DNA of 64,000 nt from a virus. Its lineage: Duplodnaviria > Caudoviricetes. Location of the stretch: the IMG/VR virus record IMGVR_UViG_2816332575_000002, positions 1 to 64,000 of that record; one strand, written 5' to 3'. The notes beneath the pieces were generated by a model. That model did not search any database. It was not told the DNA's origin and saw only the letters and a list, made by a program, of their open reading frames with translations. Numbering within the stretch: position 1 is the stretch's first letter; every line of letters begins with the position of its first letter. Below are positions 30,468 to 38,644 of the stretch, piece after piece. The position numbers and the translations under genes were made by a program.

Positions 30468-32009
30468 ATGGGCATAGCCGTCGAAGAGCAGGACGAGTTG
30501 GCTGGCTATGTTCCTGAGACGTTCCAGAATGAGGTCAGCCAGGAAACCGTAGACCAGATCATCGACAAGATGCTGCTGGTGGTCGACGAGCTGTCCGGTC
30601 ACCCGCTGAGGCACTACCAGGAGCCGCTGGCACGGCGAATCCTTGAGTCGATGATTCTCGGCGATGCCAAGACCATCACGTCCTGCATGGCCCGGCAGTC
30701 CGGCAAGACCGAGACCATTGTGAACACCATCGCGGCAGCGATGATCATGTTCCCGAAGCTCGCCCGAATCTTTCCCACCCTCATGGGCCGCTTCGCAGAG
30801 GGTGTATGGGTGGGAGCTTTCGCACCGGTCGACGACATGGCGGACAACCTGTATTCCCGGTTCGTCACCCGGCTCACGTCGGAGCGCGCCCAGGAAATCA
30901 TGCAGGACCCCGAAGTCGACGACAAGGTCACAGGCAAGGGGCGCGAACTCAAGCTGGTCAAGTCCGGCTCCCTGGTGCGCAAACAGACGTGTCATCCGCG
31001 GGCACAGATCGAAGGCCGTACCTACCACGTCGTGTTGGTCGACGAGGCACAGGTCGCCGACGAGCGGGTCATCAACAAGTCGATCTCTCCGATGCTTTCC
31101 AGCACCCGAGGCACAATGGTGCTCACAGGAACACCCACGTATTCCAAGGGCATCTTCTACAAGATCATCCAGCAGAACAAGCGGATGGCCAACAAGCGGG
31201 GACAGCGGCAGAACCACTTCGAGGCCACCTGGAAAGACGTCGCCAAGGCTCATCCGGACTATGGCATCTACATCGAGGCCGAGAAGCTCAAGATCGGTGA
31301 GGACAGCGACGAATTCAAGCTGAGCTACAGGCTCATCTGGATGCTCGACCGCGGAATGCTCACCACCGGGGAAAAGTTCGAGGCGCTGTGCGACAGCTCC
31401 ATGCAGGTGGTCAAGGCGTGGAATCACACCCCGGTCCTCGTGGGCATCGACCCAGCCCGGAAGCAGGACTCCACCATCGTCACCGTGACCTGGATCGACT
31501 GGGACCATCCCGATGAGTTCGGTACGTACGAGCACCGCGTCCTCAACTGGCTCGACTTGAGTGGGCTGGAGTGGGAGGAGCAGTACTACCGCATCGTCGA
31601 CTGGCTCTCCGCGTACAACATCTGGGCCATCTGCATCGACGTCGGCGGTGTCGGCGACGTGGTCGCATCCCGCCTCAAGGTGCTCATGCCCCACGTCGAA
31701 ATCGTGGAATGCAACTCCGACCTCGGCGCTCAGTCGAAGCGATGGAAGCACCTCATGGAGTTGATGCGGCAGGGCAAGATCGCCTGGCCGGGGCATTCGA
31801 AGGCTCGGCGCCTCAAGGTCTGGCAGCGGTTCCAGACGCAGATGGAAGACGCGGAGCTGCGCTTCCAGGGTCCAAACGTGATCGTCGAAGCACCCGACGA
31901 AACCGGCGCGCACGACGACTACGTGGACTCGCTCGCCCTGTCGGTATGGGCGTCGGCGGAGATGTCCATGCCGGAAATCCAGACGCAAGACAATTTCTTC
32001 TACCGATGA
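30468..32009 (+). CDS. terL: terminase large subunit
   Basis: ARQSGKT Walker A, LVDEAQ Walker B, GTP motif; nuclease GIDPA...D...HDDYVDS. Confidence 0.93.
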   Translation: MGIAVEEQDELAGYVPETFQNEVSQETVDQIIDKMLLVVDELSGHPLRHYQEPLARRILESMILGDAKTITSCMARQSGKTETIVNTIAAAMIMFPKLARIFPTLMGRFAEGVWVGAFAPVDDMADNLYSRFVTRLTSERAQEIMQDPEVDDKVTGKGRELKLVKSGSLVRKQTCHPRAQIEGRTYHVVLVDEAQVADERVINKSISPMLSSTRGTMVLTGTPTYSKGIFYKIIQQNKRMANKRGQRQNHFEATWKDVAKAHPDYGIYIEAEKLKIGEDSDEFKLSYRLIWMLDRGMLTTGEKFEALCDSSMQVVKAWNHTPVLVGIDPARKQDSTIVTVTWIDWDHPDEFGTYEHRVLNWLDLSGLEWEEQYYRIVDWLSAYNIWAICIDVGGVGDVVASRLKVLMPHVEIVECNSDLGAQSKRWKHLMELMRQGKIAWPGHSKARRLKVWQRFQTQMEDAELRFQGPNVIVEAPDETGAHDDYVDSLALSVWASAEMSMPEIQTQDNFFYR

Positions 32010-33114: not shown

Positions 33115-33146
33115 GAGCCGCGAGGCCGGACCGTAAACTGCTGCGC

Positions 33147-33761
33147 ATGAGGAGCATTCGTGTAGCAGCACCCGGCGACGGCCTGGCCGTCGCTCGCCTC
33201 ATGTCGTACGTCGCGAACGACGAAGTGCGGCCTGACTCCCCGATGATTCGAGCGATCGAGAAGCGCGGGGGCGTCGTGCCGGTGCGCTACGGCCAGGTGG
33301 CTTGCCTGGTAGCTGAGGTCGAAGGGGAAGTCGTCGGGATGGTGCACACCGCTCCTCCGGTTGACTGGCTGGCGACCTTCCCCAAGAACCGCGCACGGGC
33401 CCTGGCGCAGCGCATCCTCCAAATCGAGCTGCTGGCGGTGGACCCCGAGCACCGCGGCCAAGGAGTGGGACAGGCGCTTCTTGAGTCCGCGGAGAACCGG
33501 CTGCTCGATCAGCGCGGACACTTGGTCTATGCGAAGGTCCGTGCCGGTGACTATCCGGTGATGCGTTGGTACCGGCGCCGTGGCTACACCATCGCCGCGC
33601 AGGGCCAATCAGTTCTCATAAATACGACGCAGGGCCTTACCGGAATCGAGGACTGCGGAGATGGCTACCAACTAGCCGCGAAAGCCGTGCAACCCGGCAC
33701 CAAAATCGAGCGGTTCCAGGACCAGGGGAGCGAGCACCTTATCGCTGCCCGCAGTGCGTGA
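33147..33761 (+). CDS. GNAT acetyltransferase
   Basis: LAVDPEHRGQGVGQALL acetyl-CoA motif; WYRRRGY. Confidence 0.85.
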   Translation: MRSIRVAAPGDGLAVARLMSYVANDEVRPDSPMIRAIEKRGGVVPVRYGQVACLVAEVEGEVVGMVHTAPPVDWLATFPKNRARALAQRILQIELLAVDPEHRGQGVGQALLESAENRLLDQRGHLVYAKVRAGDYPVMRWYRRRGYTIAAQGQSVLINTTQGLTGIEDCGDGYQLAAKAVQPGTKIERFQDQGSEHLIAARSA

Positions 33762-33827: not shown

Positions 33828-34229
33828 ATGCCTTCCAGCCCGCTCGCCCCCGTCCCGCACAACCCGGAACGGGGCCGCCCCGAATACACTGCCAAGACCG
33901 GCTCCAACACTGCCCGCAAGGGCCGCCTCCGCTTCGAGGAGGGCGTCGGCACCGACACGGACGTACCGCGCGACTTCGGCGTTGGCGTCCTCTCCGGGTA
34001 CGAGACCGCTCCCGGACGCCCGAATCACAACAAGGTCATCTGGAAGAAGCCGGCGGAGGAGACGCTGAAGGCTCGGGCGCATGTCGGGTCCGCTTCCTGG
34101 CCCGAGGCTCCTGAGTTCCTCCAGCCTTTCGCCGACGGCGCTGGCTCCGGCGCGGAGCTGAAATTCCAGATGGCTGTGAGGGATGGCGGTCACCAGTTCC
34201 GGCGCAACTACGCCAAGGTCACCGAGTAG
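33828..34229 (+). CDS. conserved head-module hypothetical protein
   Basis: GRLRFEEGVGTDTDVPRDF...RAHVGSASWPEAP; directly upstream of portal. Confidence 0.7.
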   Translation: MPSSPLAPVPHNPERGRPEYTAKTGSNTARKGRLRFEEGVGTDTDVPRDFGVGVLSGYETAPGRPNHNKVIWKKPAEETLKARAHVGSASWPEAPEFLQPFADGAGSGAELKFQMAVRDGGHQFRRNYAKVTE

Positions 34230-34237
34230 CCGCGGCG

Positions 34238-34292
34238 CACAGAAATCCTCTCAGCTACCGTTCTCTGCGGAGCCGCTGAGAGGATTTCTGTG
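34238..34292. terminator. 18-bp perfect inverted repeat (terminator or processing hairpin)
   Basis: CACAGAAATCCTCTCAGC / GCTGAGAGGATTTCTGTG. Confidence 0.7.
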
Positions 34293-34354
34293 TAATTCGC
34301 AGTCGTGCTCCGAGGGTCGCCTCCTGCACGTAGCAGCATTGGAGGTGATGCCGG

Positions 34355-36075
34355 ATGTCCGTCGCGTTCTACCCCCCGAGTATGCGCGCCGCCTCGTCAG
34401 ACCTTGCCATATCCATCTCCCCTCTGGGGCTGGTTGAGCTGTCTGACGAGGAGTAGCTCCGCTTGAGTTTGAAATACACGGCCAGCGGTTGAGCCGGTAT
34501 TCCACCAACTGGGCCTTCTACCTTGGCTACCACCACAGCTACCGTCGCGAAGCCGGTGAAACCCAGAACGCGATCAACTACACCGGCGCGCTCGCCCGGT
34601 ACATCAACCACTTCGTGCTCGGCCGCGGCATCCACTTCGAGACGAAGAAGAAGTACGACCACATCATCCCAGCCCTGCTGCGTCGCGCATGGGAAGAGGA
34701 CAACGACAAAAAGAGCCTCCTCTACGAGATCGGCGAGCACAGCGGCGTCACCGGGGACGCCTTCGTCAAGGTGGCGTACGAGAAGCCCTACCAGGACAAG
34801 GCCGGCCGCAACCACCCCGGTCGCGTACGCATCCTCCCGCTGTCGAGCGCCCACGTGTTCCCGGAGTTCCACCCCCATTCGCGCGACAAGCTCCAGCGCG
34901 TGAAAATCAAGTACAAGTTTTTCGGCACCAACACCGATGGAACGCGTCAGACCTACGTCTACACCGAGATCCTCACAGACGACCGGATCGCGGAGTACAT
35001 CAACGACGACCTGGTGGACGAGCGCGACAATCCACTCGGGGTCATACCGGTCGTCCATATCAAGAACATCGCCGTGAGCGGTTCCCCATGGGGACTGAGC
35101 GACGTCAATGATGTCATCCCGCTGAACCGTGAGTACAACAACATCACGAACGACATCGCCGACATCATCGCGTACCACGCAGCCCCCGTCACTGTGGTGC
35201 AGGGGGCCAAAGCGACCAACCTTGAGAAGTCGCCCAAGAAGGTTTGGTCGGGCCTTCCCAAGGACTCCAAGGTGTACAACCTTGAGTCTGCCGTGAATCT
35301 CCAGGGGCCTTTGGAGTACCTGGCGATCCTCAAGAACTCCATGCACGAGCTGAGTGGCGTCCCCGAAACCGCTCTGGGTAAGACGCAGCCGGTCAGCAAC
35401 ACCAGCGGCGTTGCCCTCGCCATTCAGCACATGCCGCTGGTTCAGCGTGCCACCTTGAAGCAGATGCAGTACTCCATCGGGTTCAAGCGGATCAACGAGC
35501 TGGTTCTGCTGACACTGTACGTCCACGAGCCGAAGACGCTGATATACGACCCCGAATCCGAGGGCATCAAGAAGGACGACTCGCAGCCCGATGTCATCGA
35601 CATCCAGGACCCCGAGGCATACCAGGCCGACGTGGTCTGGCCCAGCCCCCTGCCCGTCGACAACATCGTCAAGCTCAACGAAATCCAGCTCAAGATGGCC
35701 CTCGGCCTGGAGAGTAAGCGCTCTGCCCTCAACGAACTTGGCGAGGAGTTCGCCGACGAGAAGCTCGCTGAGATCGAGGAAGAGCAGAAGCAAGACGCTG
35801 TCGCCCAGGGAGCGCTGGACTTTATCAAGGCGAGCATCGACGCGGGTATTTTGAACGCCGTGGGAATGCCGCCGCAGGAATCCCATGCCGACAAGAAAAC
35901 CACGCCGACGACAACCTCGGGGAAGGGCACCCCCGAATCGTCCGGCATGGCTCTGAAGCTCGGAATGGACACCAAGAAGATATTCGATCAGGTCGTCACG
36001 AAGGCGCACGGCACGAAATTGCCTCAGCGCTCCGTCGCCGCCGACACCACCGTAAGGACAGACAATGCCGACTGA
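34355..36075 (+). CDS. portal protein with a 14-nt coding gap at 34454-34467 (recoding or lesion)
   Basis: GGAGG + ATG 34355 gives MSVAFYPPS...LVELSDEE-stop; resumes FEIHGQRLSRYSTNW in the 34489..36075 frame; portal motifs VTGDAFVKV, GVIPVVHIKN, SGVAL. Confidence 0.85.
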
Positions 36076-37015: not shown

Positions 37016-38644
37016 ATGCCCTCTGCTATCACCGGTACGGGGATGCTGTCCCCGACTCCGACCGCCTATCCAGGCACCAATACGCAGCTCACTCCGGCGA
37101 TTCAGACCATCTGGTCGAAGGAGATCCTGTTCCAGTCCATGCCGATCCTCAGGTTCGAGCAGTTCGCGGTCTGACTTGGCCGCCTGCCGGAGTGATCTGG
37201 CAGTGATAATTCCGAGAATTGCTGGGATATCCTGCAAGACTCCAGCGCCACAGCGTAGCGGGAAACCGCAAGCGCGAAGGCTTGAAAAGCTGGAGGTAGG
37301 GACAATCAGCAGCCGAGCCCGCCTGGTGCAATCCGACGGGAAGGTTCAGAGACTATGTACGGGACACCCCACGCGGGTGAAGATATAGTCCGAACTGCGC
37401 GGAGACGCGTAGAGGCTGGCAGAAATGACCAGCCCGCCCTGGGATATTCCGGGGAGGTAACAGATTGCAAGAAGACTGAACTCGGGGTGGCCCCCGGACT
37501 TTCGATCAACTTCCTACGCTATAACAATCTGGAAGGTGCCAAGCAGCTCGTCGAAGGCGTCCGCATGGAAACTCAGGCGCTCTCGGCGTCTCAGTTCTCC
37601 ATTACCGTCGCTGAACATGGGGCTGCCGTGGCCGTGTCGGAACTCCTGCTCAATGCGTCCTTCGACGACGTTATGGCGAGCGCCTCGCGGCTCCTCGGCC
37701 GCAACATGGCCATGTACCTGGATGGCCAGTGTCGATCAGTTCTCCTGGGCGCTACCAGCGTGCTGTACGGGTACGACAAGTTCGGCGCTAACGCCGTCTC
37801 GACTGATGGCAAGCCGGGTAACCCGATCACGCGCCTGAGCCCCTATGACAAGGGAGTGCCGGCGACCGGGCGGGACGCTCTGACCGAGCACTACCTAACG
37901 TCCGCGGTCATCAAAGACGGCGTGGAGACACTCGCGGCGAAGAACATTCCCCGCATTTCCGATACCTATGTGTGCTTCATACACCCACATCAGAGCCGCT
38001 GGCTTCGGGAAGACCCGAGTTGGATTGAAGCGACCAAATACGCGGCGCCAGGGAATTTCTCAATTGGGGAAATCGGTAGGATCGATGACGTGATCTTCGT
38101 GGAATCCACGCAGGTCCGCCCGATCGCGAACTCGACGAATAAGAAGGTCTACCAGGCGACCATGATCGGTGACAATGCGTACGGTCATGCGATCAGCCTT
38201 CCGGTGGAACTCCGCGACGGCGGTGTGCTCGATTTCGGTTTCTCTGCGAAGCGTCAGGACAGCTTCGCTCTGGCCGCCTGACGGAGCAATCCGTCAGTGA
38301 AAACCCCGAGAATTGCTGGGACATTCTGCAAGACTCCAGCGCCACAGCGTAGCGGGAAACCGCAAGCGCGAAGGCTTGAAAAGCTGGAGGTAGGGACAAT
38401 CAGCAGCCGAGCCCGCCTGGCACAGGCCGACGGGAAGGTTCACAGACTAGGCACGGGGAGCCCCACGAGGGCTAAGGGATAGTCGGGTCTGCATGGAGAC
38501 ATGCAGAGGCTGGCAGAAATGACCAGCCCGCCCTGGGAAATCCGGGGAGGTAACAGAGCGCGTGAGCACGCACTTGCTTGGTACAGCATCTACGGAATGG
38601 GGATGATTACGGATCAGTCCGTGGTCACCCTGGAGACCAACTGA
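37016..38644 (+). CDS. major capsid protein (N4-gp56-like), spliced from 37016-37170, 37468-38239 and 38561-38644; 336 aa
   Basis: joined exons give 1011 nt in frame, restoring ...LRFEQFAV|KKTELGVAPG... and ...GGVLDFG|REHALAWYSIYG...; internal YVCFIHPHQ and GEIGRIDDVIFVES motifs. Confidence 0.9.
37171..37467 (+). ncRNA. group I self-splicing intron 1 (297 nt, no ORF)
   Basis: 5' exon ends in U, intron ends in G; P AAUUGCUGGGA, Q AAUCAGCAGCC, R GUUCAGAGACUA, S AAGAUAUAGUCC; P1 GCGGU/GCCGC; P10 CUUG/CAAG. Confidence 0.92.
38240..38560 (+). ncRNA. group I self-splicing intron 2 (321 nt, no ORF)
   Basis: paralog of intron 1; 5' exon ends in U, intron ends in G; R GUUCACAGACUA, S AAGGGAUAGUCG; compensatory changes in P2, P3, P7, P8 and P9. 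Confidence 0.92.

Follow-up and report, generated by a model that had tools for sequence, protein, structure and literature searches.

A 14-nt coding gap in the portal gene of a Streptomyces prophage element and its possible crossing by translational bypass

The DNA under study, called the window here, is a 64,000-nt stretch of the virus record IMGVR_UViG_2816332575_000002 (corresponding to G000:C4:26734-90733), and all positions refer to it. It carries part of a Streptomyces prophage element, whose portal gene is interrupted by a short coding gap after 33 codons; this gap and its probable crossing by ribosomes are the subject of this report. The portal gene is single-copy in the genome and sits between the terminase gene TerL (30468-32009) and the major capsid protein (MCP) gene (from ~37016), as expected of a portal gene. 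Its product matched PF05133 at 9.4e-31 and phrog_64 at 1.2e-42 (Pfam, PHROGs). The features at the locus are as follows.

34342-34350, plus strand: strong Shine-Dalgarno (SD) sequence GGAGGTGAT, serving ATG 34355, with GGAGG at 34342-34346
34355-34453, plus strand: portal N-terminal segment of 33 sense codons, ending GAC GAG GAG (34445-34453)
34450-34460, plus strand: possible mini-hairpin, GGAG (34450-34453) pairing with CTCC (34457-34460) around a UAG loop
34451-34453, plus strand: proposed take-off codon GAG, the last codon of the N-terminal segment
34454-34456, plus strand: UAG stop, the proposed slow-to-decode trigger, in the A site when GAG 34451-34453 is in the P site
34454-34467, plus strand: the 14 nt skipped in the bypass model, made up of the 11-nt gap 34454-34464 and the landing codon GAG 34465-34467
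34468-36075, plus strand: portal body (SPP1 Gp6-like), 535 codons after the landing codon, with TGA at 36073-36075

The site thus reads GAG, UAG, 8 further nt and GAG. Within the 11 nt separating the two GAGs, neither GAG nor GAA occurs in any frame, and GAGT is found at both ends of the insert. The landing GAG is in frame with the portal body and would be re-paired, not decoded a second time. The portal (-1) frame is open for 542 codons from 34447, after TGA 34444-34446. A first-pass annotation of this DNA had described the GGAGG, the ATG, the 33 codons, the TAG, the second GAG, the open -1 frame and the GAGT ends, and all of its coordinates hold. The GC content at third codon positions was 0.79 in the N-terminal segment and 0.84 in the body. 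At the protein level, the N-terminal piece was 81% identical to the N-termini in six phage portal records and 88-97% identical to those of the relatives L014-L017, and the body was 50-52% identical to phage portals over 97-99% of its length. The same SD motif lies upstream of the portal start in L016, L009, L010, L011, L012, L013, L040, L055 and L118.

The portal genes of four Borockvirus-like phages (Alone3, BRock, pSt2308 and GiJojo) were aligned with that of the window. Over 230 nt, the only indel in the alignment was a single clean insertion of 14 columns in the window. By tblastn, the last N-terminal residue and the first body residue mapped to the same Glu codon in 6/6 matched phage records. 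As the two flanking GAGs map to one Glu codon of the homologs, a GAG-to-GAG hop would recreate the homolog junction exactly, with ...SDEE followed by FEIHGQRL as in intact relatives. The first-pass annotation had suggested that the hop product resembles related portals, and the 14-column gap together with the shared Glu codon bears this out.

For a wider comparison, portal loci were drawn from 401 congeneric genomes, of which 7 gave a match, from named genome contigs (4 loci), from phage records, and from the best 80 of 550 IMG/VR relatives and the best 80 of 489 metagenome loci. This gave 176 loci, 175 of which had both the N-terminal piece and the body; de-duplication left 149 unique loci, 137 intact and 12 gapped. 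The single-protein metagenome scan found no relative, and among the best 80 of 489 loci from the alignment-based metagenome scan none was closer than 61%. The N-terminal 33 residues were recognised in 175/176 loci, and the spacing between the N-terminal piece and the body, taken from tblastn coordinates, was identical in 134/137 intact unique loci.

The host genome (9.6 Mb, roughly 73% GC) is a draft of 292 contigs, so that an assembly or sequencing artefact adding the 14 nt has to be considered. The 14-mer and the 11-mer occur once each in this genome, and a unique, non-repetitive insert of 14 nt would be an atypical error. Independent assemblies, among them single-contig genomes such as G149, also carry gaps of the same design, and the homologous gap of L016 comes from a different assembly. 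We regard an artefact as hardly credible.

The locus L016, from Streptomyces sp. UNOC14_S4, encodes a portal body 73% identical in amino acids to that of the window. Comparison of window 34230-34467 with L016 1250-1489 revealed that the intergenic region upstream and the N-terminal piece are common to the two and unlike those of the intact relatives L014, L015 and L017. L016 has a gap at the same site, which can be aligned with that of the window but is 2 nt longer. Roughly half of the positions aligned between the gaps have changed, compared with only 9/33 codons in the adjacent 99-nt N-terminal piece. Both gaps still open on a slow codon, in L016 the rare AGA, and still close with GAG as landing triplet. 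With its ends kept and its interior diverged, the gap looks unconstrained inside. The higher similarity between the window and L016 ends at about the gap, and the gap may have arisen as, or travelled with, a recombination junction.

The two gap lengths also bear on ribosomal frameshifting. A -1 (or +2) shift within 34447-34456 would yield a portal with about five extra junction residues (VAPLE). The portal frame is indeed open from 34447, as the first-pass annotation had pointed out when it named a -1 shift as an alternative, and the stop codon could pause the ribosome. The shift itself is disfavoured: no slippery heptamer is present, the shift would force tRNA(Glu) to re-pair from GAG onto GGA, and L016 would require a +1 shift instead. 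The skipped 14 and 16 nt need opposite frameshifts (-1 and +1), so a single hop model accounts for both. Moreover, the constant spacing in the 134/137 intact unique loci means that the extra junction residues are unseen in nature, and a study of Streptomyces terminase genes argues likewise for its own cases (PMC10732093). Frameshifting therefore appears quite improbable at this site.

Alignment of homologous portal genes had been named in the first-pass annotation as a check for a recurrent gap with matched codons. Comparison of the collected loci revealed gaps in 11 further unique loci; besides L016, 10 of them have gaps led by a slow codon, with matched codons close by. The 12 gapped unique loci resolve into 14 gap designs at ~8 sites, roughly at codons 29-58. 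They are given below as take-off codon, intervening nucleotides and landing triplet, followed by the length skipped.

Window: GAG, 11 nt starting TAG, GAG; 14 nt skipped
L016: GAG, 13 nt starting AGA, GAG; 16 nt skipped
L009: GAG, TTAA, GAG; 7 nt skipped
L010 and L013: GAG, TTACC, GAG; 8 nt skipped
L011: GAA, TTACC, GAC; 8 nt skipped
L012, first gap: CTT, TTAC, CTC; 7 nt skipped
L012, second gap, in frame: CGA, TTA, CGT; 6 nt skipped
L012, third gap: CAC, TTAC, CAC; 7 nt skipped
L035: TTC, TTAG, TTC; 7 nt skipped
L040: GAA, TTAT, GAA; 7 nt skipped
L055, first gap, in frame: CGA, TTA, CGC; 6 nt skipped
L055, second gap: TAT, T, TAC; 4 nt skipped, the A-site codon reading TTA
L102: CGA, then 4 extra nt starting TAG; 4 nt skipped
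L118 and L120: GAA, 19 nt starting TTA, GAA; 22 nt skipped

The first zero-frame codon of the gap was TTA in 11/14 designs, TAG in 2/14 and AGA in 1/14. The landing triplet was identical to the take-off codon in 8/14 designs, synonymous in 4/14 and without a match in 2/14. TTA is rare in this setting: it was found in frame twice in 11,160 codons of 21 portal bodies with a GC content of at least 0.60, and in the window's element it accounts for 7 of 17,881 codons (AGA, 38). Gapped loci made up 12/47 of those with a portal GC content of at least 0.57 and 0/102 of those below it; the loci are kin to one another, so that the Fisher value makes this restriction look stronger than it is. Taken alone, the window site would be weak evidence, but chance does not account for the same design recurring at 11 further unique loci. 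Openings with TTA, TAG or AGA in 14/14 designs and endings on the preceding codon in 12/14 are not what random lesions would give.

The in-frame 6-nt inserts of L012 and L055 (CGA TTA CGT and CGA TTA CGC) lie at the same site, ~125-135 nt past the portal start, and could be either hopped or read as Leu-Arg, depending on the supply of the TTA-decoding tRNA. The longest gap, that of L118 (1383-1560) and also L120, holds a 9-nt perfect complement of its own SD sequence GGAGGTGAT, which lies ~100 nt upstream. In L009-L013, L040 and L055, a conserved ORF (open reading frame) of 236-240 residues without a Pfam family lies directly upstream of the portal gene; it is specific to this clade, which holds most of the TTA-led gaps, and its composition does not point to a nuclease.

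All 12 gapped loci (12/12) have an open body of 525-567 codons. L010 and L013, from two genomes, share the 8-nt gap, indicating that their divergence postdates it. Their portals differ at 18 positions, 17 of them synonymous and one non-synonymous (conservative), which is a clean sign of purifying selection on a gapped portal gene. For L012, three successive hops are needed, and neither of its two inter-gap segments contains a start codon. Over the first 70 codons, L012 and L013 differ by 30 synonymous and 1 non-synonymous codon differences, although part of this divergence may predate the gaps.

These segments also bear on the possibility of two separate products, in which a 33-residue peptide would end at UAG and a shorter portal would be made from a start such as TTG 34489, possibly by termination-reinitiation. 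TTG 34489, which the first-pass annotation had offered as an alternative start, does open a 528-codon ORF, and the SPP1_portal Pfam match begins only at residue 10 of the translation from 34447, four codons past the landing codon, so that the first 33 residues lie outside the domain model. However, no SD sequence is found in the 20 nt before this TTG, which speaks against it as a start. The N-terminal 33 residues, found in 175/176 loci, match at 65-97%, compared with 51-82% for the body, and the two startless inter-gap segments of L012 are conserved in their own frames. Two products are thus very improbable.

Taken against the 149 unique homologous loci, the best-supported explanation is the one favoured by the first-pass annotation, namely that the 14 nt form a short coding gap crossed by a GAG-to-GAG translational bypass triggered by UAG. 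We put its probability at roughly 0.6. It is favoured because the hop would restore the junction of intact relatives, because L016 has a GAG...GAG gap at the same site, and because ten more loci carry gaps led by a slow codon, with matched codons close by. In the proposed course of events, ribosomes would start at ATG 34355 behind the strong SD sequence and translate 33 codons, bringing peptidyl-tRNA(Glu) onto GAG 34451-34453 with UAG in the A site. Before a release factor acts, the peptidyl-tRNA would unpair in a fraction of ribosomes, slide 14 nt and re-pair with the first downstream cognate triplet, GAG 34465-34467, and decoding would restart at UUU 34468. The SD-like GAGGAG, which abuts the UAG stop, and the CUCC in the gap may help. 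As for a role, the hop might hold down the amount of portal protein, of which each head needs 12 copies, or might allow a recombination scar to be tolerated.

Several observations weigh against bypassing at this site. The first-pass annotation had held that a gap unique to this genome, with no full-length portal made, would count against it; the exact 14-nt form was indeed seen in the window's genome only, but L016 has the homologous 16-nt gap. Two designs, L011 and L102, are without a matching landing triplet, and the selection test on L010 and L013 concerns a TTA-led gap of another clade, not the gap of the window. A stop codon invites termination, so the efficiency of the hop could be very low. 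The window portal itself, at sites where four close relatives agree, has 21 private non-synonymous and 48 synonymous changes, compared with 8:61, 14:43 and 9:34 in three intact relatives and 44:59 in L016 (window against the pooled intact relatives, Fisher p = 0.056). Of 170 columns without variation among 13 other portals, it is also altered at 5 (F>L, G>S, D>S, G>S and T>S), compared with 0-2 in the intact relatives and 5 in L016. These values suggest a mildly relaxed constraint; the level of change is well below neutral expectation but would be compatible with a weakened constraint or a function lost recently.

A local structure gave no help either. The first-pass annotation had placed the take-off codon and the stop in a GGAG-UAG-CUCC hairpin. 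The pairing is possible, and the 4-bp mini-hairpin appears in the fold centroid (-3.8 kcal/mol; the fold lies at about -3.8 to -4.8 kcal/mol), but stability above chance was not borne out: its z was 0.55, and 146/200 shuffles folded at least as well. Four local folds, three of the window and one of L016, were no better than shuffles, with z from -0.29 to 0.76 in the window. The mini-hairpin was dropped as evidence, being indistinguishable from chance. The CTCC in the gap is complementary to GGAG both at the take-off site and in the ribosome-binding site. Rfam gave no match at the gap, and no tRNA gene was found within the window.

The changes in the window portal also bear on an inactivating insertion, that is, a 14-nt lesion, possibly a scar of recombination or repair, which would leave no full-length portal and a defective prophage. 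The modest excess of non-synonymous change and the altered invariant residues would fit such a loss, as would the drop in similarity between the window and L016 at about the gap, perhaps a recombination junction. Furthermore, gaps were seen only in genome-integrated or metagenomic elements and in 0/6 of the isolated-phage records examined. However, the portal body remains open over 542 codons, and the ratio of non-synonymous to synonymous private changes, 0.44, lies well under the neutral ~2.5-3, a value that is our own uncomputed estimate. The L016 gap has diverged internally, yet its slow first codon and GAG landing triplet were kept, and the openings and endings of the 14 designs are not those of random lesions. 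With the remainder of the element intact, as described below, inactivation is unlikely.

The element is a region of lower GC content (63-69%) at ~27.8 to 130 kb of contig C4, syntenic with ~100-kb elements in three other Streptomyces genomes. In its head genes it resembles the Streptomyces phages BRock, Alone3, LuckySocke, pSt2308 and GiJojo (112-116 kb). TerL is intact. Among ORFs with hits, a single in-frame stretch of at least 80% of the length matched 36/40 from G404 and 45/51 from G402. Four of the ten exceptions could be explained: the capsid introns affected both queries, one further case was a gene boundary, and one was a diverged ORF that matched weakly. In the other six, the match was limited to the C-terminal two-thirds of the stop-to-stop ORF, or less. 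On these comparisons the element does not look decayed.

The MCP gene is itself in three same-frame pieces (~37016-37171, 37466-38239 and 38525-38641), whereas its orthologs in G404, G402 and G403 are contiguous. The first insert, 37161-37412, matched the Rfam group I intron model RF00028 at 56.9 bits, and the second, 38256-38506, matched it at 47.9 bits (E = 4e-10), slightly below the gathering score of 50. A capsid gene split by two group I intron matches argues against plain decay.

Frame breaks elsewhere were searched for by tblastn of the window's element against G404, G402 and G403, which gave many candidates, followed by a coding-frame filter. Three candidates outside the portal gene proved to be gene boundaries on inspection, as did an apparent break at C4 119.9 kb. 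A double break at C4 67.2-68.4 kb (window ~40.5-41.7 kb), which appeared against one G402 ORF, was put aside in view of its base composition. In 60 kb around five other portals, the same scan gave only portal breaks and gene boundaries. The scan missed 2/4 known gapped portals, indicating a low sensitivity for gaps near the 5′ ends of genes, so that finding none does not mean that none is present.

Short gaps of a related kind have been described in Streptomyces. One report presents non-coding blocks of 7-10 nt led by UUA in 3/100 terminase genes of Streptomyces phages and prophages (PMC10732093), which agrees with the mention of such candidates in the first-pass annotation. The cases for which UUA-mediated bypassing has been proposed are phiHau3 with two 10-nt gaps and the StrepC.1 and S. 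catenulae prophages, the latter with 7 nt (Antonov et al. 2023, PMC10732093; Smith et al. 2013, as cited there). In that report, bypass is preferred over frameshifting from the conservation of the junction, contiguous protein is detected in Streptomyces, and the junction peptide is found by mass spectrometry in E. coli once UUA was replaced by UAA (PMC10732093). The phiHau3 candidate and the T4 gene 60 bypass are also mentioned in PMC5009743.

Compared by published description, the phiHau3-type terminase sites and the window share an origin in Streptomyces, an essential gene for the head or packaging, occurrence in prophages, a short non-coding block at a junction without length variation, a landing codon at the 3′ end of the block, a slow A-site codon and an SD-like sequence nearby. 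Unlike them, the window gap lies in a portal gene, is longer (14 nt skipped) and belongs to an unrelated ~100-kb Borockvirus-like lineage. Its trigger is the stop codon UAG, with AGA in the sister L016, in place of UUA; with a stop codon as trigger, the proposed sensing of bldA/tRNA-Leu(UAA) cannot apply at this site. UAG and UUA sites may nevertheless share a mechanism, given the UAA-for-UUA replacement reported for E. coli in PMC10732093. On sequence grounds, the window would be a further member of the rare class of bypass candidates led by a slow codon (phiHau3 type), now in a portal gene. No report of bypassing in a portal gene of Streptomyces phages was found in the literature searched, the one use of "portal" in PMC10732093 being for a data portal. 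To our knowledge, natural bypassing is documented for very few genes, namely T4 gene 60 and its homologs, yeast mitochondrial genes and the three Streptomyces terminase candidates.

In T4 gene 60, a 50-nt gap is crossed from GGA to GGA at codon 46 (PMC5009743; bioRxiv 10.1101/2022.08.31.505936). Like the window, it has matched take-off and landing codons, UAG directly after the take-off codon, a potential stem-loop including the take-off codon, a site early in the gene (codon 46, and codon 33 in the window) and, for the window on the bypass model, one protein from two frames. The window differs in skipping 14 nt instead of 50, from GAG to GAG, with a 4-bp non-significant hairpin; there is no sequence homology, and no homing endonuclease was found adjoining the gap. 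The ORFs between TerL and the portal gene encode a GNAT acetyltransferase or belong to no family (Pfam, PHROGs), and ten upstream ORFs of relatives matched no nuclease family, although a novel nuclease is possible. A conserved N-terminal peptide of 33 residues is expected equally of a functional portal N-terminus and of a T4-type nascent-peptide signal. By analogy, the layout of the window site is closest to that of T4 gene 60 in miniature.

Another comparison is offered by prfB, the gene of release factor 2, in which a +1 frameshift takes place at a stop codon with an SD-like sequence upstream. At the window site, too, a stop codon in the A site would act as the pause, and the SD-like GAGGAG comes immediately before it. 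It differs from the +1 shift of prfB in its net -1/+2 change over 14 nt and in having no slippery codon in the P site. Among the relatives, only L102 (CGA, TAG, 4 extra nt) could fit a prfB-like +1 shift at a stop.

The window adds a natural stop-led candidate site, in an integrated prophage of a near-complete Streptomyces genome, and its AGA-led sister to 11 TTA-led designs within the same 30-codon stretch. A broader reading, which we hold only tentatively and consider possible rather than probable, is that the 5′ end of the portal gene might be a selection-maintained hotspot of interchangeable hop cassettes, each made up of a slow codon (UUA, UAG or AGA), 1-19 nt and a cognate landing triplet. 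If so, the shared function would be translational attenuation of a protein that initiates assembly and of which few copies are needed, or the survival of recombination scars, and not bldA sensing. The UAG and AGA forms would then provide the first evidence from nature that bypass elements in Streptomyces can exchange their trigger codon. Such a set would also offer a system in which hop length (4 to 22 nt) could be related to efficiency in one protein context, in a genome whose assembly appears to come from an isolate. As a natural allelic series, the sites provide hops of 4-22 nt, three kinds of trigger codon and perfect, synonymous or mismatched landings for tests in a high-GC Gram-positive host. 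For annotation, they are relevant since genes of this kind get called truncated or pseudogenes.

A few further features were recorded around the locus. Sampling of the element's left end in search of an integrase turned up a helicase and a DUF3761/PASTA protein only. The stretch 33115-33761, which separates terminase and portal genes, encodes a GNAT acetyltransferase domain (PF00583, 5e-15); it had no blastn match in L014 or L015 and none in the available upstream DNA of L016 and L017. A scan for promoters and terminators gave nothing useful on the plus strand. Between the upstream gene (33828-34229) and the ribosome-binding site of the portal gene lies one more feature.

34241-34291, plus strand: perfect 16-bp inverted repeat with a 19-nt spacer

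The consensus terminator scan made no call at this repeat, whose 19-nt loop is above the limit of the scan; it is possibly a terminator or a processing hairpin. A similar hairpin is also present in L016.

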